Assembly (NCBI GenBank): GCA_965202835.1
Contig: CBDBCA010000002.1
Coordinates: 1,392,427 to 1,456,426 of the forward strand
Origin: Alphaproteobacteria bacterium
GTDB taxonomy: Bacteria > Pseudomonadota > Alphaproteobacteria > MPNO01
Reading direction: 5' to 3'
Length of the DNA: 64,000 nt
Shown: one piece after another, positions 4,449 to 40,785 of the stretch
How the letters are laid out: the number at the start of each line of letters is the position of its first letter
Position numbering within the stretch: the stretch's first letter is position 1
Translations under genes and position numbers: made by a program
The notes under the pieces: model-generated
What the model saw: the letters and a program-made list of their open reading frames with translations, nothing else
Told to the model about the DNA's origin: nothing
Databases searched by the model: none

Positions 4449-5210
4449 ATGGAGAAAGGCGCGGCCGTACTGGTCACCGGGGGCTCGTCCGGGATCGGCG
4501 CGGCGTCCGCCCTGCAGCTCGCCGAGAAGGGCTGCCGCGTGGCCGTCAACTACCGCGCCAACGAATCCGGCGCGGCGGACACCGTGGCGGCCTGCGAAGG
4601 CGCCGGGGTCGAGGCGTTCGCGATCCAGGGCGACGTATCCGACGATTCCGCGTGCCGCCGCATGGCCGAGGCGGTCGAGGCGCGCTGGGGCAGGCTCGAC
4701 GGGCTGGTCAACAACGCGGGCGCCACCCGGTTCCACGACCCCTTCGACCTGGAAGGGCTGACGGCCGACGACTTTGCTTCGTCCTACGCGGTCAACGTCA
4801 CCGGCGCGTTCCAGATGGCGCGCGCGGTCGTGCCGGCGATGAAGCGGGCGGGCGGCGGCGCGATCGTCAACGTGTCGTCCTTCGCCGCCGCGATCGGCGC
4901 CGGGAGCTCGATCGCCTATACCGCGTCCAAGGGCGCGGTGAACACGCTGACGCTCTGCCTCGCCCGGGTGCTCGCGCCCGAGATCCGGGTGAACTGCGTC
5001 GCGCCGACGCTCACCGACACCCGCTGGAACCGCTCCGGGCTCGGCGACAAGCGTTACGAGAAGGTCCTGTCGGGTTTCGTGGCCTCGGCCCCGCTCAAGC
5101 GCAAGATCGTCGCCGAGGACGTGGCCGACGCCATCGTCTGGCTGGTCACCGGCGCCGAGCTGGTGACCGGCGAGATCGTTCCGATCAGCGCCGGCACCCA
5201 TCTCGGTTAG
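4449..5210 (+). CDS. SDR-family oxidoreductase
   Basis: TGGSSGIG Rossmann motif, NNAG, and the SxnYxxxK catalytic pattern (YTASKGAV). Confidence 0.85.
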   Translation: MEKGAAVLVTGGSSGIGAASALQLAEKGCRVAVNYRANESGAADTVAACEGAGVEAFAIQGDVSDDSACRRMAEAVEARWGRLDGLVNNAGATRFHDPFDLEGLTADDFASSYAVNVTGAFQMARAVVPAMKRAGGGAIVNVSSFAAAIGAGSSIAYTASKGAVNTLTLCLARVLAPEIRVNCVAPTLTDTRWNRSGLGDKRYEKVLSGFVASAPLKRKIVAEDVADAIVWLVTGAELVTGEIVPISAGTHLG

Positions 5211-5236
5211 CCCGGCCCGGGATTACCACTGTCCGG

Positions 5237-5424
5237 TTTATAGCGTGTCCGTTCTTGATTGAACCGCCTCGCCCAATTTCTGCCGTCATGGTCGGCGAAG
5301 GCCGACCATCCACGTTTTGTTTTGAATCCAGAGACTTAAAAACTCGTGGATGGTCGGCCTTCGCCGACCATGACGGTTGGGAAGCAAGGGGTAACAGCGC
5401 TTTCTATCCGAAACGGACAGACTC
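5237..5424. repeat. MITE-like 188-bp repeat, copy 1; 32-bp perfect internal inverted repeat arms (5282-5313 / 5344-5375) around a 30-bp AT-rich spacer
   Basis: Near-identical to 39959-40146. The arms CCGTCATGGTCGGCGAAGGCCGACCATCCACG and CGTGGATGGTCGGCCTTCGCCGACCATGACGG are exact reverse complements. Short terminal inverted repeats (tgtccgtt / aacggaca). It sits in a lower-GC intergenic region. Confidence 0.75.
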
Positions 5425-5697
5425 TGGCTTTCCGGGCCGGGCTCCGCGCCCATGAGCGAGACCGTCCCCGCCCCCCGGTGTCGGCTACGGATTCGGGTTC
5501 TACGCGGCGTCGCTACGCATCTGATGCCTGCAACCTTGATGCGATGATGCTTTCATGCCGTGCGGGGCGTCATGCGAAGGCCGGGCCACAAGCCGTTGAC
5601 GCGGCGTCCGCTTTCGCCGCCGCGCACCGTCCCGAACCGCGCGGGCGCCAACCCCTCGTGTCCCCTGGGGACAGAAAAAAATGCCGTTTCAGGCTAA

Positions 5698-5751
5698 TGT
5701 TTCACGTGAAACAATGGTCAACGATGCTGACCTATGTTTCACGTGAAACAT
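5698..5751. promoter_or_regulatory. two copies of the 16-bp perfect palindrome TGTTTCACGTGAAACA (5698-5713 and 5736-5751; the second extends to 18 bp, ATGTTTCACGTGAAACAT)
   Basis: Read directly from the sequence. Centres are 38 bp apart. They lie between the 3' ends of the convergent SDR and GST genes. Candidate dimeric transcription-factor operator or structured RNA. Confidence 0.5.
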
Positions 5752-5771: not shown

Positions 5772-6395
5772 CTACCCCTGGCCGAAATCGAGCCCGCGCC
5801 GCACGCCGGGCCTGGCCTCCATCTCCCCGTACCAGCGGTCGAGATTGGCGTAGCCCTGCATCAGATGCGGCGTCACCTGCTTGCAGCGGACCAGCGTGCC
5901 GAACATCGCGAAATCGGCGATGCTGACCGCCTCGCCGCCGCAATTGGCGCGCGTCGCGAGCGCTCCGTCCCAGACCCGGAGGAAATCGCTGAAGCGCTCC
6001 TCGAACATCTTCTGGGTCGGCTCGTGCGGGTTTTCCGAGCGCACGATGGCGAAGATCGTCGACAGCGTCGGTCCCATGTCGGAGAGGATGTTGACGTAGC
6101 GCTCCCGGAACAAAGGCTGGTTTTCCGCCGTGGATATCCCGAACCGGCCGGTCTTGTCGGCGAGATAGGCGAGGATCGCGCCCGATTGCGCCATGGTGAG
6201 CGAGTTCCCGTCCGGCCCGTCATGGTCGACGATCGCCGGGGTCAGACCCTGCGGGTTGATCGCCAGGAAGTCGGCCTCGCTGTGCGCGCCGGCGAAGATG
6301 TCGACGAATTTGAGGGTGTAGGCGAGGTTGCACTCCTCCAGCATGATCTTGACGCGGATGCCGTTCGAGGTGGCCGCGGCGTAGAGGTCGATCAA
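5772..6395 (-). CDS. glutathione S-transferase
   Basis: Thioredoxin-like N-terminus (MIDLYAAATSNGIRV...) with an alpha-helical GST C-terminal domain. Confidence 0.8.
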   Translation of the reverse strand: MIDLYAAATSNGIRVKIMLEECNLAYTLKFVDIFAGAHSEADFLAINPQGLTPAIVDHDGPDGNSLTMAQSGAILAYLADKTGRFGISTAENQPLFRERYVNILSDMGPTLSTIFAIVRSENPHEPTQKMFEERFSDFLRVWDGALATRANCGGEAVSIADFAMFGTLVRCKQVTPHLMQGYANLDRWYGEMEARPGVRRGLDFGQG

Positions 6396-9951: not shown

Positions 9952-11628
9952 GTGACCGAAACCGGGCGCGCAGCGAACGTCGCGGGCATCCGGAGCCCAC
10001 GCGGGTCCGAGCTGACCGCGAAGAGCTGGGCCACAGAGGCGCCGCTCCGCATGCTGATGAACAACCTCGACGCGGAGGTCGCCGAGCATCCCGAGGAACT
10101 CGTCGTCTATGGCGGGATCGGCCGGGCGGCGCGCAACTGGGACTGCTACCGCGCCATCGTGGAGTCGCTCACCCGCCTCGAGGAAGACGAGACCCTCTGC
10201 GTCCAGAGCGGCAAGCCGGTCGGCATCTTCCGCACCCACCCCGACGCGCCCCGCGTGCTGATCGCCAATTCCAACCTGGTCGGCGGCTGGGCCAACTGGG
10301 AGCATTTCAACGAGCTCGACCGCGCCGGGCTGATGATGTACGGCCAGATGACGGCGGGCTCGTGGATCTATATCGGCAGCCAGGGCATCGTCCAGGGCAC
10401 CTACGAGACGTTCTCCGAGGTCGGGCGCCAGCATTTCGGCGGCGATCTCGCGGGCAGGTGGATCCTGACCGGCGGGCTCGGCGGCATGGGAGGCGCGCAG
10501 CCGCTCGCCGCCACCATGGCCGGCGCGAGCCTGATCGCCGTGGAATGCCAGCCGAGCCGGATCGAGTTCCGCCTGAAGACCGGCTACCTCGACACCGAAG
10601 CCGCCTCGATCGACGAGGCGCTCGCGATCGTCGAGCGCGCGCGGGCGGACGGAAAGCCGGTCTCGGTCGGGCTGCTCGGAAATGCGGCGGAGATCTATCC
10701 CGAGATGCTGGAGCGCGGCATCCGACCCGACGCGGTGACCGACCAGACCTCGGCGCACGACCCGTCGAACGGCTACCTGCCGGCAGGCTGGACGCTGGAG
10801 GAATGGGCCGACCGGCGCGAGCGCGACCCGGCCGGCGTCGCCGAGGCGGCCAAGCGGTCGATGGCACGCCAGGTCGAGGCGATGCTCGCCTTCCACCGCG
10901 ACGGCATCCCGGTGCTCGACTACGGCAATAACATCCGCCAGATGGCGTCCGAGGCCGGGCTGAGGGACGCCTTCGACTTCCCGGGCTTCGTCCAGGCCTA
11001 TGTCAGGCCGCTGTTCTGCCGCGGCAAGGGGCCGTTCCGCTGGGCGGCGCTGTCGGGCGATCCGGAGGACATCTACCGCACCGACGAGACGGTGAAGGAG
11101 CTGCTGCCCGACGACCGGGCCCTCCATACCTGGCTCGACATGGCGCGCGAGCGGATCCACTTCCAGGGGCTGCCTTCCAGGATCTGCTGGCTCGGGCTCG
11201 GCGATCGCGACCGGGTGGGGCTCGCCTTCAACGAGCTCGTGCGGTCGGGCGAGATAAGCGGGCCCATCGTGATCGGCCGCGACCACATGGATTCGGGCTC
11301 GGTCGCGAGCCCCAACCGCGAGACCGAGGGGATGCTCGACGGCACCGACGCGGTCGCCGACTGGGCGTTCCTCAACGCGATGCTCAACACCGCCTCGGGC
11401 GCCACCTGGGTCAGCATCCACCACGGCGGCGGGGTCGGCATGGGCTATTCGCAGCACGCCGGCATGGTGGTGCTCGCCGACGGCACCGACGACGCCGAAC
11501 GCAAGCTCGCTCGCGTGCTGTGGAACGACCCCGGCTCCGGCGTGATGCGCCACGCCGACGCGGGCTACGACATCGCGATCGAGACCGCCCGCGCCCACGG
11601 CCTCGACCTGCCGATGCTGGAGGGTTAG
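9952..11628 (+). CDS. hutU: urocanate hydratase
   Basis: 558 aa with urocanase motifs ([39 protein letters not shown]). GTG start. Confidence 0.9.
11400..11628 (+). repeat. left copy of the roughly 229-bp direct repeat (3' end of intact hutU) flanking the inserted cassette
   Basis: Re-occurs at 13763-13991 with 4 substitutions, all synonymous in the hutU frame. Confidence 0.85.
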
Positions 11629-11788
11629 CCGGGCGCGAGGTTTCCTCCCCTTCCCGTCACGATGGCGGCGCGCCCGATGTCTCGCCACGACCGGTCGGCA
11701 AGCCGGTTACGCAACGCTGGCGATATTCTGCGCGCTGCCCCATGATGGCGGAATACTGCTGGGGAACATCCTCGACGCGGCACGTCCA

Positions 11789-13075
11789 ATGCGCATCGAT
11801 CGGCTAACTGTCTCGAACTTCAAGAAATTCGAAGAGGAAACCTTCGAATTTCATCGCCAATTCACGCTTCTGGTGGGCGACAACGGCGCTGGCAAGACGG
11901 CCGTCCTGGATGCACTTCGTATCGGCGTGGGTGCATACCTGCTCGGGATCCCTTACGGGCAAGCACCCTCGATCAAACGGGAATATGTGCGGCGAGAGAC
12001 CAGACGAAATGGGGAGTTCTCGACTTTCGAGCCCGTCACGCCATCCGTGGTCGGATGCGAAGGACGCGTGCATCTTTCCGATCTTCGCTGGAATCGCGAA
12101 TTGGCCTCGTTCCGTGGGCGAACGAATCGAGTCGGGGCGCGGGAACTTGTACGGTGCGTCGCCAAGTACTTTCGGGAAAACGATCCGGGAATGAACTTCC
12201 CGCTGATCGTTTCGTACGGCACGGGGCGTTTGTGGATCGAGCCGCGGACCACGAAGAAAGCCCGCTCCGCAGTCCGCGAGCCTCTCGGCCGGCTGTCCCG
12301 GTTCGAAGCCTATCGCGGCTGCCTTGGCCCAGCGGTTTCGTCCGAATTGCTGCGCCGGTGGATCAAGAAAATGGCGCTGATCGCGGTTCAAGAGAAGCAG
12401 TCGCTGGCGAGTCTCGATGCGGTCTATTCGGCGGTTGTGGGCTGCGTCGAGGGTGTGGACCGGGCGCTTTACGATTTCGACCTCGACGATATTGCGCTCG
12501 ATTTCGAGGATGGAGAACGTTATCCGTTCGGCTTCCTTAGCGACGGGCAAAGAAGCATGGCGGCACTCGCTGCCGACATCGCGTTGCGATGCGTTCAACT
12601 GAACCCACATCTGGCGGGGGAGGCGCCGCACGAGACCGAGGGCGTGGCGCTGATCGATGAGTTGGACCTCCACTTGCATCCGAATTGGCAGCGCGTCGTT
12701 GTGCGCAACCTGACCTCCCTCTTTCCGAAATTGCAGTTTGTCGCCACGACGCACTCGCCGTTCATCGTTCAGTCGCTCGACGGTCAAGGGCTGGTCAATC
12801 TCAGCGATCGGGGCGTTCTGGAGGAACGAAAGGAGCCGTACAGTATCGAAGACGTGGCCGAAGAAACCATGGGCGTGGATGCGCCACAACGGAGCAAGCT
12901 GTTTCTGGAAATGGAGGCTGCGGCGGGGCGCTACTACGAACTCCTTGATCGGTTGAGCGAAGACGATCCGGCCGTAATACAAGCGAAGGCGGAGTTGAAC
13001 CGAATCGAAGCGCGCTTCTCCGACAATCCGGCATACGCCGCTTTGCTGAAGCTGCAGCGTTCTGCGGCCGAGTAG
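11789..13075 (+). CDS. ABC-type (AAA_15/AAA_21-like) ATPase, Septu PtuA-like
   Basis: Walker A GDNGAGKT, signature-like LSDGQRS, Walker B ALIDELDLHLHP, H-loop TTHSP. Lower GC than its surroundings. Immediately followed by an HNH nuclease gene. Confidence 0.7.
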   Translation: MRIDRLTVSNFKKFEEETFEFHRQFTLLVGDNGAGKTAVLDALRIGVGAYLLGIPYGQAPSIKREYVRRETRRNGEFSTFEPVTPSVVGCEGRVHLSDLRWNRELASFRGRTNRVGARELVRCVAKYFRENDPGMNFPLIVSYGTGRLWIEPRTTKKARSAVREPLGRLSRFEAYRGCLGPAVSSELLRRWIKKMALIAVQEKQSLASLDAVYSAVVGCVEGVDRALYDFDLDDIALDFEDGERYPFGFLSDGQRSMAALAADIALRCVQLNPHLAGEAPHETEGVALIDELDLHLHPNWQRVVVRNLTSLFPKLQFVATTHSPFIVQSLDGQGLVNLSDRGVLEERKEPYSIEDVAEETMGVDAPQRSKLFLEMEAAAGRYYELLDRLSEDDPAVIQAKAELNRIEARFSDNPAYAALLKLQRSAAE

Positions 13076-13092
13076 CGGAAGCCAACAGCGCG

Positions 13093-13713
13093 ATGCGATC
13101 GGTCGAACGCGGATCGTGGCCGACCGAAAGCGACGGCCACCGGAAGTCCTTCTCCCAGTACGGGCACGTGAAAGCGCCGCTAATCGAAAGAATTGGCGAG
13201 TATTGCAGCTATTGCGAGCGTCCCGGCGACCTCCATGTCGAACACGTCGTTCCCAAATCTGTGAAGGACGACCTCGAAAATGAGTGGTCGAATTTCCTGC
13301 TCGGATGCGCAAATTGCAACAGCCGCAAGTCGGACAAAAACGCTTCGAGAGATGGGTATCTTTGGTCGGATCGCGACGACACGTTCGGCGCCTTCGTATA
13401 CCGGCCGGGCGGAAGGGTGTCGGTGAACGGCGGACTTGCGCGGCCGCAGCGTGGTAAGGCGGCGGCGCTGTTCGACCTTGTCGGGCTCGGCGAAACGGGA
13501 ACCCGCACCGACAGACGCCGCCGCAAAAGGCGCCAAGCCTGGGATCAAGCAGTCAAAGTTCGCGACCTCATCAACAACGGTAATTCAAGGACTCTTGCCG
13601 TCGACTTGGCTGTGGCAATCGGATTCTTCAGCGTTTGGATGGCGGTGTTTCACGAGGACAAAGATATGCGTAACCGCTTGGTAAACGCATTTCCGGGAAC
13701 GCGAACGGGATAG
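13093..13713 (+). CDS. HNH endonuclease, Septu PtuB-like (TIGR02646-type)
   Basis: HNH motif [19 protein letters not shown]...[12 protein letters not shown]. 18 bp downstream of the ATPase gene. Confidence 0.7.
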
Positions 13714-13762
13714 CGATCGTTTCCCCCCGAATGTCCCGACGACAGCCGATTTCGGTATCCAG

Positions 13763-13991
13763 CGCCACCTGGGTCAGCATCCACCACGGCGGCGGGGTCG
13801 GCATGGGCTATTCCCAGCACGCCGGCATGGTGGTGCTCGCCGACGGCACCGACGACGCCGAACGCAAGCTCGCCCGCGTGCTGTGGAACGACCCCGGCTC
13901 CGGCGTGATGCGCCACGCCGACGCGGGCTACGACATCGCGATCGAGACCGCCCGCGCCCACGGCCTCGACCTTCCGATGCTGGAGGGGTAG
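13763..13991 (+). pseudogene. displaced duplicate of the hutU 3' end (last ~76 codons), right copy of the direct repeat
   Basis: The translation [75 protein letters not shown] is identical to the hutU C-terminus. It has no upstream hutU body. Confidence 0.85.
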
Positions 13992-14054
13992 AGGGGACGG
14001 CGCCAGCGCCGTATCGAGGGACGGCATCCTCCACCGCAGCCGCCCGCCCCGATT

Positions 14055-14081
14055 GTCACCCCGGACTTGTTCCGGGGTGAC
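14055..14081. repeat. REP-like hairpin, copy B GTCACCCCGGActtgtTCCGGGGTGAC (11-bp perfect stem)
   Basis: Perfect inverted repeat. It lies between the hutU remnant and the convergent MBL gene. Confidence 0.7.
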
Positions 14082-24962: not shown

Positions 24963-25000
24963 GGGCGCGCCATACGGGTGAGACCGGGTGCGCGGCCCCG

Positions 25001-25146
25001 GACCCCGGAACAAGTTCGGGGTGACAATTTGTGCGGTTTCCGAAAACGAGCCCGGCAATCGAGCGGCCGTACAACGGCCTTCGTCGCGCAGCCGGCGCCC
25101 TGCCGCCCGCTGTCACCCCGGGCTTGTTCCGGGGTCCAGGGAAGCC
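25001..25146. repeat. pair of REP-like hairpins in opposite orientation (copy C 25001-25025, reverse and imperfect; copy D 25122-25146)
   Basis: GACCCCGGAACAAGTTCGGGGTGAC and GTCACCCCGGGCTTGTTCCGGGGTC, about 120 bp apart between convergent genes (BIME-like doublet). Confidence 0.65.
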
Positions 25147-36558: not shown

Positions 36559-36891
36559 TCAGTGACCGATCGACCAGGGGCGTGAATGCGTGTTGTGCAG
36601 ACCTTCGCCGAGGCCGGTGTTGCGCCGCGCGCCGTGGCTGTGGCCGTGGTCATGCCCATGACTGTGGCCGCCCGGCTTTCCGGACACCACCCTGGGCTCG
36701 TCCGCGCTCTTTTCGTTTCGCTGATGCGCGATCCGGTTGTTGGGGTCCATGTTGGCGATGAACGGCGCGCTTATGCTGCGCGGGGCCGCGTTGCCGCAAT
36801 CCGGGCAGGGCATCGGCTCCGACGATCGGCTCATCGGCTGTATCTCGGTAAACGGGCCGCATGCCCCGCAATCATAACCGTAAATCGGCAT
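36559..36891 (-). CDS. FmdB-family zinc-ribbon putative regulatory protein with a His-rich tail
   Basis: MPIYGYDCGACGPFTE...CPDCG. The C-terminus is GHSHGHDHGHSHG. Confidence 0.7.
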   Translation of the reverse strand: MPIYGYDCGACGPFTEIQPMSRSSEPMPCPDCGNAAPRSISAPFIANMDPNNRIAHQRNEKSADEPRVVSGKPGGHSHGHDHGHSHGARRNTGLGEGLHNTHSRPWSIGH

Positions 36892-36955
36892 CGCGCCCTC
36901 CTCCATCGCCGAGCCGGATGCCGCCCGGCCCCGACGGGCCGGGCGGCAATGTCGG

Positions 36956-37468
36956 CTAGGTAAGCCAGCCTTCGAGAATCAGGTAGCCGGGCAGCCAAGC
37001 GGTCAGCACACCCTGTATCGAGGTCATGGCTCCCGTCGCCTTGAGGATCGGTCTCTGCATCGCCAGCAGCAGGAAGAACATGAACCACAGTACCGCCCAC
37101 GCGGCCCAGCACACGCCCAACCACCACCCCAGCGGCGAGGTGGCGGCCATGAACTGGACCACGGCCACCGGGACAACGGTGATGGAGACGAACAGGCTGT
37201 ACCAGCCGAGCCCGCGGCCATCGACGTCCTGGAACCGGTTATAGGCCACCCACAGATAGGTGAAGCTGAAGAGCAACGTCAGCGCCGCAGCCCTGATTGA
37301 TTGGTCATCGGCACCGGGCCCGAAGGCCAGATATGCGGCCACGGCCGCAGTGACGAGACCGGAAAAGATGTTGATGATCGCGATCTCGCGATCACCGATG
37401 CGCCCCAACAGCCAGATTCCGTTCAGGAACAGAACGGCTCCAACCCAGAGCAGTGCAAGTCCGAGCAT
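36956..37468 (-). CDS. AmiS/UreI-family amide/urea channel
   Basis: 170-aa 6-TM protein of the AmiS/UreI type. It sits between the formamidase and fmdB-like genes. Confidence 0.7.
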   Translation of the reverse strand: MLGLALLWVGAVLFLNGIWLLGRIGDREIAIINIFSGLVTAAVAAYLAFGPGADDQSIRAAALTLLFSFTYLWVAYNRFQDVDGRGLGWYSLFVSITVVPVAVVQFMAATSPLGWWLGVCWAAWAVLWFMFFLLLAMQRPILKATGAMTSIQGVLTAWLPGYLILEGWLT

Positions 37469-37629
37469 TTTCGAGTCCTCCGCGTGTCAGATACTCCGCA
37501 GAGTGACCGGTGCGGATGCACTTACGCGACGGTACGCCGCACCGAACAAACGTTCGCCGGTCATCATCTGCGGACCGGGATGCGAAGCGGAGGCCGGACG
37601 GTCGCCGCCCCGCCTCCGCGATGCATCAA

Positions 37630-38868
37630 TCAGCTGCAGGACGTCGCGTCTACGCCGCTGACGTGGACGGTCGGTCCGGAAGCGTTCGGCCGGATATCGA
37701 AATCGAAGATCTCCGTTGGAACGGCAACCGTGCAACACGCGTTCGGGATGTCGACGATTCCGCTGACCCGGCCCTCGACGGGAGCCGTGCCAAGGATCAT
37801 GTAAGCCTGCTCGCCCGAATAGCCGAACTTCTTGAGATATTCGACCGCGTTCAGGCAGGCGCGGCGGTAGGCAACCGTCGCATCCAGATACTTCTGGGAA
37901 CCGTCGTGCTCGTCGACGCAGACCCCCTCGAAGATCAGGTACTCGGAGTAATGAGGCTCGACCGGGCTTGGCTTGAAGACCGGGTTGGTGATCCCGTACT
38001 TCTCGACACCGCCCTTGATGACGTCGACGCCGATATCGATCCAGCCGGCCATCTCGATGGCGCCGCAGAAGGTGATCTCGCCGTCGCCCTGCGACCAGTG
38101 GATGTCGCCCATCGAGAGCCCGCCGCCCGACTGGTAGACCGGGAAGTAGCAGGTTGAGCCGCGCGACAGGTTCTTGATGTCGCAGTTCCCGCCATGCTCG
38201 CGCCCGGGCACCGTGCGCGCGCCTTCCAGGCCCGCGGCGTTCGCCGCGTCGCCCGTCATCTGCCCCATCAGCGCCGTCGTCGTCCCGGCGAGGCCGTCCG
38301 GCAGCGTGCACAAAGGCGGCACGCGGTCCGGATCGGTCCTGAACAGGGCCGACTCCCGGTCGTTCCACCGCTTCAGCAGATCGGCGTCAGGCAGAGTGCC
38401 GATCAGCCCGGGATGAATGAGCCCGGGAAAGCGCACGCCGGGAATGTGGCGCGACGTGGTGTAGATGCCGTGGAAGTCCCAGCACGCCTTGCGCGCCTCG
38501 GGGAAGTGCTTGTCGAGGAACCCGCCACCGTTTTCCAGCGCGAAGATCCCGGTGAACCCCCACTTGGAATCCGGCAGCCATCCGATGTCGTTGATGTCCA
38601 CGACCATGAGGTCGCCGGGCTCGGCGCCCTCGACGCCGAACGGTCCGCTCAGATAGTGCACTTTCGAAAGATCGACATCCCGGATGTCGTTGGCGGACTC
38701 GTCGTTCTTGATCTGCCCGCCGGTCCAGTCGTAGCACTCGACCCGGAATTCATCACCGGGCTTGAAGGTTTCCACGATCGGGATATCCGGGTGCCACCGA
38801 TTGTGGGTCTTGACGTCTTGATCTTCGGGCCATTTGTCCATTTCCGCCCGAAATACAGTGTTGGCCAT
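37630..38868 (-). CDS. fmdA: formamidase (acetamidase/formamidase FmdA_AmdA family)
   Basis: 412-aa protein collinear with the FmdA family. Start at MANTVFRAEMDKWPE. The ORF-track 5' extension is excluded. Confidence 0.8.
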   Translation of the reverse strand: MANTVFRAEMDKWPEDQDVKTHNRWHPDIPIVETFKPGDEFRVECYDWTGGQIKNDESANDIRDVDLSKVHYLSGPFGVEGAEPGDLMVVDINDIGWLPDSKWGFTGIFALENGGGFLDKHFPEARKACWDFHGIYTTSRHIPGVRFPGLIHPGLIGTLPDADLLKRWNDRESALFRTDPDRVPPLCTLPDGLAGTTTALMGQMTGDAANAAGLEGARTVPGREHGGNCDIKNLSRGSTCYFPVYQSGGGLSMGDIHWSQGDGEITFCGAIEMAGWIDIGVDVIKGGVEKYGITNPVFKPSPVEPHYSEYLIFEGVCVDEHDGSQKYLDATVAYRRACLNAVEYLKKFGYSGEQAYMILGTAPVEGRVSGIVDIPNACCTVAVPTEIFDFDIRPNASGPTVHVSGVDATSCS

Positions 38869-39724
38869 GCTTTCCTCCCAATCCTTGAGTGCGCGTTTGT
38901 GCCGTTCACGGAACTTGTCCGTGCCGCAACTACTTGGGCCTCTAGCTGTACAGGCCCCGCACAAAACCTCGGGAAATCACTGTTCCGATCAGCCGCTATA
39001 ATTACTTTTTATCTGACCGATAGAAGAAAACAGTATTATGCCGCCACACCGATCACAACCCCTATCTTCCACCACTATGCGGAATTGACGCTGGGCGGCG
39101 CGTATATCGTTGCCCGAAGCCCCTTGAGGGTCACTAACCGGGGGCATTTAATGTGATGATATAATATTACATAACACCGCGCGGAGGAGATAATTCCGGC
39201 GTGAAATCGCGCCGCTCTCCATCCCCGCGCACAGGGCGAAATGTCGGGCAAGGACTCGCAATCCCGCGCGCGCGGCCCGATAACATCGGGTTGCCCTGCG
39301 CCGGGGCGGCAACTCGGGGAGGCGGTCGCCATGCCATCGTTTGCATTGCGTAACGCGAGCGTCCCGCCTTCCCTGCCCGGGGAGCCGGCCGACCTCTTCC
39401 CGTTCCGGGGAAGGTCAGGCCCCGAGCGGCCTGACGGGACCGCGGAGCGAACGCTTGCTCACCCCGCCATCGGAAAGTCCGGGGGCCACGGCCGGGAGGG
39501 CGTCAGGGTGCGCCTTCCACCGTGGGATCTTCGGGCAACGGCAGATCGGCGGCCAGCCGGATCGCGCCCGAGGCGCGGTCGAACAGGCGGACCGCGCGAT
39601 CGCCGGCGAGGGATTCCGGCCGCCATTCGAAGTCCTCGTGCTGGCGCAGGAACGCGACCTCGCCGCGGCCGGGCACCCGACACTCCCGCTTGCCTTTGGG
39701 GCACTTGCCCGTCGCAGTCCGTTC

Positions 39725-39752
39725 AGGTCGGCGAGGTCGGCGAGGTCGGAGA
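39725..39752. repeat. short tandem repeat (GGTCGGCGA)x2.5 inside a degenerate, ambiguously coding region
   Basis: Read directly from the sequence. Minus-strand protein-like segments change frame at this repeat. Confidence 0.5.
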
Positions 39753-39958
39753 GCCAGAGCGCGAGATCGACATCCTTGCACTCGTGCCATAGCTCGATCC
39801 CCTTGCGCCGGCATGGCTGGAAGCGGGGCACCTCCTTCCAGGGATCGCGCGCCACGGAGCCGATCGGGGAGACCGCAACGACATGAGGGTGGTCGCGCCA
39901 CGCGGCCGTCCACTTCCCCACAGGCCCAGCAACCGCAACAGAAGCGGTCAATCGATGT

Positions 39959-40146
39959 TCTATAGCGTGTCCGTTCTTGATTGAACCGCCTCGTCCATTT
40001 TCTTCCGTCATGGTCGGCGAAGGCCGACCATCCACGTTTTGTTTTTGATTCCAGAGACTTAAAAACTCGTGGATGGTCGGCCTTCGCCGACCATGACGGT
40101 TAGGAAGCAAGGGTAACAGCGCTTCCATCTGAGACGGACAGGCTCT
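39959..40146. repeat. MITE-like 188-bp repeat, copy 2
   Basis: Near-identical to 5237-5424, including the 32-bp inverted-repeat arms. Confidence 0.75.
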
Positions 40147-40267
40147 AGGAAAACCGGACAAATCTACTTGCTAACGACAGCCCCGGCTGAGGTGTTGCCG
40201 GAATGGTGATCGAACGGAACGGCGTCCCCCGTTCCGATCTCCTCTATGGGCAGGGAATAGGCTGGCC

Positions 40268-40723
40268 TCAGAACGTGGTCGGCTCTTCCGTCATTTCGCG
40301 GCGCTCCTCGATGTCGAAGCGGTCCCTGTAGATCGGCCGTCCGCCGGTGTTGGGTCCCGGATACTGGCAGAACACGATGGTCACACCGTTCTCGGTGTGG
40401 AGTTCGCGCTCGACATGGGGGTCGGGGTGGAAGACGAAAGTGCCGGCGGTCAGCCTCTCCCCGTTCACCGTGCACTCTCCCTCGGTGATGTACCAGACCT
40501 GCGCGAAATCGTGGGCGTGGTCGGGGAAGTGGCCGCCGGGCTCGAAGCGGGTGACGCCGAACAGCGGCTCGGTCGGGTCTTCGGCGCACGGGTGAAAGGC
40601 GATCTTTCCCCATTCGCCCGGCCAGCGGATGCGCTTCCATTCGAGGTCGTCGACATGGACCGCCCGGTGCGGCGCGCGCTCCCCGATCAGCCTCGCCACC
40701 CGCGCCTCTCGATCCTCGGCCAT
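40268..40723 (-). CDS. cupin-domain protein
   Basis: Cupin metal-binding His pattern (HFPDHAHDF...H). Confidence 0.6.
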   Translation of the reverse strand: MAEDREARVARLIGERAPHRAVHVDDLEWKRIRWPGEWGKIAFHPCAEDPTEPLFGVTRFEPGGHFPDHAHDFAQVWYITEGECTVNGERLTAGTFVFHPDPHVERELHTENGVTIVFCQYPGPNTGGRPIYRDRFDIEERREMTEEPTTF

Positions 40724-40785
40724 TTTCGCCCCTTCCCTCGCGGTTGTAGGGTTCGATCTGACCACTCCACCGGACGGATGACAAC

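Follow-up and report, generated by a model that had tools for sequence, protein, structure and literature searches.

A dispersed palindromic element of an alphaproteobacterium built on a head-to-head dimer of CGTC-tagged REPs, with a GIY-YIG nuclease as candidate partner

Introduction

What kind of element is a palindromic unit of about 190 bp that occurs twice, 34 kb apart, in a 64,000-nt stretch of contig CBDBCA010000002.1 from an Alphaproteobacteria bacterium (assembly GCA_965202835.1; the whole stretch is hereafter called the window)? An earlier note, made from the letters alone, had taken the unit for either a MITE (a miniature transposable element with inverted repeats) or a structured small-RNA gene, with a segmental duplication as the remaining case. 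As described below, the core of the unit belongs to a published superfamily, the CGTC-tagged repetitive extragenic palindromes (REPs), in the form of a head-to-head dimer, rather than to a generic MITE, and the 190-bp composite is a new variant of it.

The CGTC-tagged REPs were defined by a terminal CGTC, an 8-9 bp stem opening with the pairs A-T and T-A, a loop measuring 4-5 nt and a tail of the form CCA (Di Nocera et al. 2013, BMC Genomics 14:522, PMC3733652), with TGTC and CCTC as variants of the tag. According to the same paper, they are mostly alphaproteobacterial, are located after genes, predominantly form head-head dimers, and constitute a superfamily that includes the Neisseria dRS3 and Rickettsia RPE-4/RPE-6 repeats. 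They "apparently lack a dedicated transposase", and no tyrosine-transposase gene flanked by CGTC repeats was found; its authors suggested that the enzyme has died out or that transposases are borrowed for the task (PMC3733652). These REPs are common in Alphaproteobacteria, Neisseria and Rickettsia, and since 2013 the way in which they spread has stood as an open problem.

Results

The two copies are CGTC REP dimers nested in an outer palindrome

The homology between the two copies, both on the + strand, extended from 5238/5239 to 5425/5427 in copy 1 and from 39960/39961 to 40147/40148 in copy 2, with an identity of approximately 94-96% in gap-free blocks. It ended abruptly on both sides, and the flanks were unrelated. 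The 32-nt arms were exactly complementary in both copies and enclosed an AT-rich spacer of 30 nt (copy 1) or 31 nt (copy 2), and the window contained four instances of the palindrome ATGGTCGGC-GAAG-GCCGACCAT nested in the arms, shuffled sequences giving an expectation of 0.05. The earlier description of two near-identical copies having perfect arms, an AT-rich spacer and a nested palindrome was hence confirmed for both copies, which were about 94% identical, and these four were the only arms in the 64 kb.

In order to classify the arms, they were compared with the published definition. The CGTC tag was found at 5284-5287 and 40006-40009, and its complement GACG at 5372-5375 and 40095-40098. 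The stem ATGGTCGGC/GCCGACCAT consisted of nine perfect base pairs starting with AT and was closed by the loop GAAG (CTTC on the opposite strand), and the tail CCACG directly followed the stem in all four arms. The GTGG beside the stem belonged to the CCAC tail, seen from the opposite strand, and was not a GTAG-type tag. Judged by sequence, every feature published for CGTC REPs was thus present in the arms, and both copies were head-to-head homodimers with the tags pointing outward. Readings of the unit as an attC site or as CRISPR repeats were dismissed on motif order and arrangement, and a search of the 64 kb against Rfam gave no family at the gathering threshold, a loose E-value around copy 1 yielding only microRNA hairpin models.

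The 190-bp unit as a whole was the REP dimer nested in an imperfect terminal inverted repeat of approximately 45 nt per side, spreading as one unit. The short terminal inverted repeats GTGTCCGTT...AACGGACAG noticed earlier proved real and were extended across the family to CTAGAGC..TCCGTTT / AAACGGA..GCTCTAG, both ends carrying CTAGAGC-NNN-TCCGTTT and remaining similar (65-70%, judged by eye) through about 35 nt. In most of the 11 full-length copies described below the ends read C-TA...TA-G, and they lay on CTAG/TA. Folding of either strand of the unit, a check that the note had proposed, predicted approximately -105 kcal/mol with z between -12 and -13, and the REP dimer core alone gave a predicted -74 kcal/mol. 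Nesting of CGTC REPs within longer palindromes has been reported in two other species, for example for H. neapolitanus CGTC-1 (PMC3733652).

The window also harbored a second REP family, TGTCACCCCGGACTTGTTCCGGGGTCCA, at 6-38, 14045-14078, 24996-25036 and 25102-25141, having a CGTC-type layout with a TGTC tag, an 8-bp stem starting with A-C instead of A-T, a 5-nt loop and a CCA tail. One head-to-head pair of this family spanned 24996-25141.

The family is dispersed and its hairpin conserved

The 22-nt palindrome was used as the query in a scan of one genome per species, which returned at least 110 loci. By these matches at unrelated flanks, the expectation of further copies was borne out for related genomes only. 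The loci included 47 tight dimers, head-to-head in all 47 cases, and about 45 apparent singles, many of which turned out to be dimers with a different partner stem in the frame CGTCAT-stem-loop-stem-ATCCACG. OZ220750.1 and CBDBCV01 contributed approximately 17 and 14 loci, respectively. Full-length 190-bp copies numbered 11 in five genomes, all with unrelated flanks, at least nine of them lying beyond the window in OZ220750.1, CBDBCV01, CBDDOM01 and JAPPIT01 with the same extended ends as above. The bare dimer occurred at dozens of additional sites with unrelated flanks, and the same core was also found within other outer palindromes, namely a 290-bp form (99% identical, at least six copies) and a form of approximately 320 bp with the terminus ACTGCTGTCCGGTTTA. 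A BLASTN search of a plasmid database with the element gave zero matches.

When partner arms were chosen by position (and tail) only, 96% of their stem positions were paired, and double-sided changes amounted to 30 against 8.5 in shuffles, none of 500 of which reached as high a number, with covariation at five inner stem pairs. These observations indicated conservation at the level of the hairpin. Concordant tetraloops in both arms were found in 43 of 52 dimers, against an expectation of 24.9 and a highest count of 35 across 5000 shuffles, indicating that the dimer is copied or kept as one unit.

Several further arrangements of the family and its surroundings were observed. At L059 7365-7555 (fetched loci are given by L numbers), a 190-bp copy had its spacer inverted relative to the outer arms, the outcome expected from recombination between REP arms. 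CGTC REP arms were interrupted, in the loop or in the 3' half, by a family with the terminus (CC)ACTGCTGTCCGGTTTA at L096 2287-2606, L004 249, L012 7921, L058 7479 and L064 4032; the L096 member of this family, of approximately 320 bp, had the same REP dimer at its center and was flanked by repeated GGACTTGTTCC. The look-alike of this terminus next to copy 1, ACCACTGTCCGGTTTA, was a single occurrence and not significant by itself, one match being reached in 11 of 100 shuffles. A further palindrome, CCCCTCCCGC-AAGC-GGGAGGGG, with GAAGGTAAGGAAG frequently behind it, recurred at L215 3700-3830, L222 2580-2640 and L003 4490-4530 in intergenic sites of relatives, including the spacer that carries copy 1 in the window.

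A GIY-YIG nuclease gene is framed by CGTC-type arms

In a metagenome-assembled genome of Dongia (L039), two arms of the exact REP type of the window framed a 95-aa open reading frame (ORF) for a GIY-YIG protein, and the same was found on a JGI contig (L111), likewise of Dongia. The dimer spacer of L004 held the C-terminal remnant of such a gene; this was the only clear remnant in wide-spacer dimers, L060 being marginal (E = 0.04). The protein matched PF01541 with 58 bits (cut-off 22.6, E = 9e-16), and Y6, Y17, R27, H31, E64 and N83 were invariant or nearly so among 62 sequences. Its structure model (pLDDT 93.7) was closest to the solved folds of UPF0213 and the Slx1 nuclease domain (1zg2, 7cq3, 4xlg and 6seh). 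Slx1 is a structure-specific endonuclease that cuts branched and stem-loop DNA. The family was large, with 1447 close relatives and 9271 clusters at E <= 1e-10.

To evaluate how regularly the gene is framed, 96 gene loci were fetched, 80 of them metagenomic and 16 obtained by exact look-up, some being the same locus in several samples. Among the 80 metagenomic loci, a CGTC-type arm lay within 130 nt on both sides of the gene in 51, on one side in 22 and on neither in 7, against a background of 0.41 arms per kb in the same loci. Arms were present on both sides in 58 of the 96 loci, and in 46 of these 58 both tags pointed outward, so that the gene occupies the position of the dimer spacer. Typically, the gene started 20-60 nt past one arm and ended 5-20 nt ahead of the other. 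The proportion of gene pairs sharing the REP stem rose with protein identity, from 2% of the pairs below 55% to 69% at 75-85%.

The same arrangement was found in the cultured genomes of A. lipoferum 4B, S. meliloti and N. aromaticivorans, and the GIY-YIG homologue of N. gonorrhoeae was located within a dRS3 cluster; Azospirillum lipoferum, Sinorhizobium meliloti, Novosphingobium aromaticivorans and N. gonorrhoeae are all hosts named in the 2013 paper (PMC3733652). In A. lipoferum 4B, the order was sufB, dimer, gene, dimer, sufC, and this module of approximately 530 nt was absent from the sufB-sufC spacer of three close Azospirillum relatives. The A. lipoferum REP dimer had 21 places in the plasmid database, 17 of them on A. 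lipoferum 4B replicons. The literature search retrieved no paper pairing GIY-YIG with REP terms within the collection searched. Taken together, these loci establish the association of the GIY-YIG gene with REP arms and make the nuclease a candidate for the enzyme that spreads them.

The module was also seen inside conserved gene pairs, between dnaN and recF in ten metagenomic contigs (L117-L126) and between sufB and sufC in A. lipoferum 4B (L208); its insertion within operons is evidently tolerated.

Position after genes and possible role in transcripts

According to a crude gene caller, the sites of the family lay between convergent genes in 27 cases, tandem genes in 35 and divergent genes in 10; a bias to post-gene sites has also been published for REPs (PMC3733652). 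In the window, the SDR gene (4449-5210, +) and the GST gene (5772-6395, -) converged on copy 1, the SDR stop lying 28 nt before the element, and the stop of the cupin gene (40268-40765, -) was 120 nt from copy 2. On the strand that runs from tag through hairpin to tail, 64% of 158 arms had five or more T among the 9 nt behind the tail and 82% had four or more, in DNA with 17% T. Single arms were predicted to fold with -18.9 kcal/mol followed by UUUUGUUUU (copy 1 arm 1, +) and with -20.6 kcal/mol followed by AGUUUUU (arm 2, minus-strand RNA).

Because the tags point outward, transcription from either side would encounter a hairpin and U-tract first: a transcript arriving from either neighbor would meet a stable hairpin (-19 to -21 kcal/mol) and then a U-rich tract, and on read-through a long hairpin of -74 to -105 kcal/mol would form. 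The T-rich tract after each arm together with the preference for gene 3' ends fits a two-way terminator or a barrier at RNA 3' ends, and we infer that the element may act in this manner between neighboring genes.

Host, and presence and absence between relatives

The window was syntenic, at 85-93% nucleotide identity, with CBDANZ010000001.1 (L047/L097), a contig labelled Vicinamibacterales. Its urocanase was 94% identical to that of a Defluviicoccus metagenome-assembled genome, and the named homologues were from Rhodospirillaceae or Alphaproteobacteria. The host is therefore probably a Defluviicoccus-like alphaproteobacterium, and since the window proteins point to Defluviicoccus/Rhodospirillales, the label or binning of the syntenic contig is doubtful. 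A cross-phylum spread of the family was accordingly rejected; the other non-alphaproteobacterial matches were short metagenome-bin contigs, or palindromes arising by chance, in which 4-5 mismatches lay outside the core used in the search.

Copy 1 was absent from the syntenic L047 and from six closer relatives. Four relatives had an SDR/GST spacer of 68 nt, two with a 94%-identical urocanase protein had one of 178 nt, and L047 had one of 115 nt, as compared with 561 nt in the window. L047 in turn carried dimers behind infA and behind hutU, places at which the window lacked them. Since close relatives without copy 1 carry dimers elsewhere, the family must be mobile or have been so in the past. 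When the flanks of the at least 110 loci were matched all against all, only filled-filled pairs resulted. Of the comparison with related genomes that the note had suggested, the extra copies and the differing presence between close relatives were thus obtained; for target-site duplications it furnished ends on CTAG/TA and no alignable empty site.

Copy 2 lay at the right edge of a strain-variable 3.45-kb segment (36818-40265) comprising an AmiS/UreI transporter gene (amiS), a formamidase gene and a frame-broken ORF, in place of which the relative L222 had 200 nt. The frame-broken coding region reported beside copy 2 was plausible, given switches of GC content at third codon positions at ~39450 and ~39650 and protein-like stretches in two minus-strand frames, even if no Pfam or other protein family match was obtained for it, the hand-spliced product included. 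Gene decay associated with insertion of the element, with which the note had found this region consistent, is at most putative, because the ORF belongs to the strain-variable segment at whose edge copy 2 lies.

Coordinates and neighboring sequences

The coordinates of the features are summarized in Table 1. Copy 1 is bracketed by a 12-nt inverted repeat, for which reason it may have been inserted into the loop of an older hairpin.

Table 1. Features of the two copies and of their immediate surroundings (positions in the window)
Feature	Position	Strand	Basis
Composite palindromic element copy 1, ~190 bp	5238..5427	+	Homology to copy 2 and 9 copies elsewhere
Copy 1 outer left arm, imperfect terminal inverted repeat	5238..5282	+	Consensus CTAGAGCGGATCCGTTTTAGTTGGAACCGCTTCGTCCGTTCTCTTC (11 full-length copies aligned)
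Copy 1 REP arm 1	5283..5314	+	C-CGTC tag, stem ATGGTCGGC, loop GAAG, stem GCCGACCAT, tail CCACG
Copy 1 spacer, 30 nt	5315..5344	+	T-tract at left end, A-tract at right end
Copy 1 REP arm 2	5345..5376	-	Arm 1 REP on minus strand, tag outward
Copy 1 outer right arm	5377..5427	+	Family consensus ...GGTAAAGGCGCTTCTATCTGAAACGGACAGGCTCTAG (alignment)
Composite element copy 2	39960..40148	+	Homology; 11-copy alignment
Copy 2 REP arm 1	40005..40036	+	Sequence
Copy 2 REP arm 2	40068..40099	-	Sequence
AGCCCGGCCCGG, left half of 12-nt inverted repeat bracketing copy 1	5209..5220	.	Read in sequence
CCGGGCCGGGCT, right half of 12-nt bracketing inverted repeat	5432..5443	.	Read in sequence
ACCACTGTCCGGTTTA, resembles terminus (CC)ACTGCTGTCCGGTTTA of second family	5225..5240	+	16-nt look-alike abutting left side of copy 1

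Other sequences were noted near the copies. In the SDR/GST spacer, the palindrome TGTTTCACGTGAAACA occurred twice, 35 nt apart, at 5698-5750 with a small hairpin in between, a possible regulator-binding pair, and AAACCGGACA was found to the right of copy 2. Exact look-ups of the SDR and cupin proteins of the window gave no record. At the 3' end of hutU, a 2.1-kb insert (11634-13761) encoded an ATPase of the AAA_15/AAA_21 kind (11789-13075) together with an HNH endonuclease (13093-13713), and was bracketed by a 235-bp direct repeat of the hutU end (11399-11633 / 13762-13996, 97% identical); the insert was absent there in relatives. The two genes at 11789-13713 resemble a Septu-type defence pair.

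Discussion

We put at roughly 60% the probability of the following reading: a dispersed, terminator-like family of CGTC REP dimers, to which both copies belong as non-autonomous members, is spread by an enzyme acting in trans, the GIY-YIG nuclease being the best candidate. The spread of the element would need such an enzyme to be supplied in trans, and for the REP dimer the best candidate would be the Slx1-like nuclease of approximately 95 aa, the gene of which lies elsewhere at the spacer position between CGTC arms. A short-spacer dimer would then stand to the gene-bearing unit as a MITE stands to its insertion sequence, or as a REPIN to its REP-associated tyrosine transposase (RAYT). The outer inverted repeats might alternatively or additionally be served by some transposase, and the sharp ends of the 190-bp unit on CTAG do suggest a different enzyme acting on them. 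The more specific proposal, namely that CGTC REPs are propagated or maintained by the low-copy nuclease and that the elements of the window are its non-autonomous offspring in an outer palindrome, is tentative, and we would give it somewhat less than even odds.

Several points weigh against this explanation. No GIY-YIG gene was found in the 64-kb window, nor in the at least 110 REP loci apart from L039 and the remnant in L004. In Dongia, the sole case with the exact REP type of the window, the tags face the gene (tail-to-tail) and do not point outward. GIY-YIG nucleases are not known to be transposases, and the gene could home into REP dimers instead of spreading them. The sharp outer ends on CTAG likewise speak for another enzyme, and the empty SDR/GST spacers of L047 and the six closer relatives were too diverged to align, so that neither borders nor duplications could be read from them. 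As to the terminator-like character, a scan for consensus terminators and promoters called nothing at either copy; the arms escape the terminator consensus because a 1x2 internal loop splits the 9-bp stem from three closing pairs.

The sharp outer ends would be explained directly if the unit were a classical MITE, moved as a whole through its outer repeats by a DDE transposase of the IS630 or IS5 kind at a TA/CTAG target with the REP dimer as a passenger. All 11 copies share the ends CTAGAGC..TCCGTTT / AAACGGA..GCTCTAG between unrelated flanks, and these ends read C-TA...TA-G, the trace to be expected of IS630 if it duplicated TA within a CTAG target; moreover, the related terminus (CC)ACTGCTGTCCGGTTTA marks another family that has an 11-bp flanking duplication in L096. 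Among the 206 fetched loci, however, no transposase gene was framed by the outer repeats, no paired ends lay 0.7-3 kb apart, and no parent insertion sequence was found by either the outer repeat or the ACTGCTGTCCGGTTTA terminus; no empty site with a duplication was seen, and the CTAG may belong to the repeat itself. The core dimer alone is far more widely dispersed than the outer part, which is therefore not needed for spread, and the presence of the same core in several outer palindromes (190, 290 and 320 bp) would be odd for a chance passenger. We consequently regard this explanation as doubtful, and of the earlier classification as MITE-like we retain the miniature non-coding inverted-repeat element and replace the generic MITE with the CGTC REP dimer at its core.

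It also appears unlikely that the GIY-YIG gene is a free-standing homing endonuclease targeting the spacer of REP dimers, which would then be landing pads spreading otherwise or without a dedicated enzyme. GIY-YIG is a classic homing-endonuclease fold, the gene is located precisely in the spacer, the arms could offer homology for repair-mediated copying, and presence of the module varies between close Azospirillum species. A homing gene would hardly be expected, however, at only 1-2 copies per replicon despite the many empty dimers in the same genomes, and the protein, 95 aa and Slx1-like, has none of the DNA-binding extension of homing enzymes. In addition, the constancy of its locus across samples, as in the ten dnaN-recF contigs, gives it the look of a vertically kept single-copy gene, as RAYTs are. 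The small-RNA gene that the note had offered is very improbable: the fold is very stable and its stem pairs covary, but both strands fold equally well and the conservation is that of a DNA palindrome, there is neither an Rfam family at the gathering threshold nor a promoter-like site, the copies stand directly behind stop codons at gene 3' ends, and hundreds of relatives occupy unrelated sites, sometimes with a protein gene replacing the loop. A segmental duplication within the genome, to which the mere two copies in 64 kb might have pointed, has a negligible probability and can be set aside, as the homology ends exactly at the element borders and the same unit stands at unrelated sites in four other genomes.

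Taken alone, the element is an ordinary member of a known superfamily, useful in annotation for marking gene ends and strain-variable junctions and for explaining spurious ORFs. If the CGTC REPs do depend on the GIY-YIG nuclease, this would represent a second type of partnership between REPs and an enzyme, with a mechanism unrelated to that of the HUH-based RAYT/REPIN system; it would bring in a nuclease fold that is not known for driving transposition in bacteria, and would be a second, independent, long-lived association of repeat and enzyme within bacterial genomes. The lineage-matched framing of the gene provides a concrete enzyme candidate in cultivable hosts (A. lipoferum 4B, S. meliloti and N. 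aromaticivorans).

Among known systems, the element is closest to the CGTC REPs of Di Nocera et al., with which it shares the tag, stem, loop and tail, the homodimer with tags out, the alphaproteobacterial host, the post-gene sites and the occasional nesting. It differs in that the 9-bp stem with a 4-nt loop exactly fits none of the four published families, that outer inverted repeats of 45 nt and a conserved spacer with T/A-tracts are particular to the sub-family of the window, and that an associated enzyme gene was not found in the 2013 paper. The dRS3 and RPE-4/RPE-6 repeats, placed in the same superfamily by that paper, and the S. meliloti intergenic repeats have other stems, dRS3 being clustered, and a composite form of 190 bp is not known from them. 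The IS630- and IS5-derived MITEs (such as Correia, RUP and Nezha) resemble the unit in size (100-300 bp), terminal inverted repeats, intergenic location, strong transcript hairpin and TA/CTAG ends; here, in contrast, neither a parent insertion sequence of the unit nor a duplication at its ends came to light in the fetched loci, and the center is a REP dimer mobile without the outer repeats. With the stand-alone GIY-YIG nucleases Slx1 and UPF0213 (YhbQ-like), the candidate protein agrees in predicted fold and catalytic residues, whereas no link of the bacterial members to repeats was found in the literature searched, and the REP activity of the candidate is putative. In the REPIN/RAYT system (Bertels & Rainey 2011; Nunvar et al. 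2010), too, two REPs in inverted orientation make up, with their spacer, a single long hairpin replicating as one unit, the arms undergo concerted evolution, and a non-autonomous repeat is accompanied by a low-copy gene framed by the same REPs. The present family differs from it in having a CGTC tag instead of GTAG, in that no HUH/Y1 transposase was linked to it, no search aimed at Y1 having been made, and in that the gene framed by its arms encodes a GIY-YIG nuclease of unrelated fold and usually lies inside the dimer.

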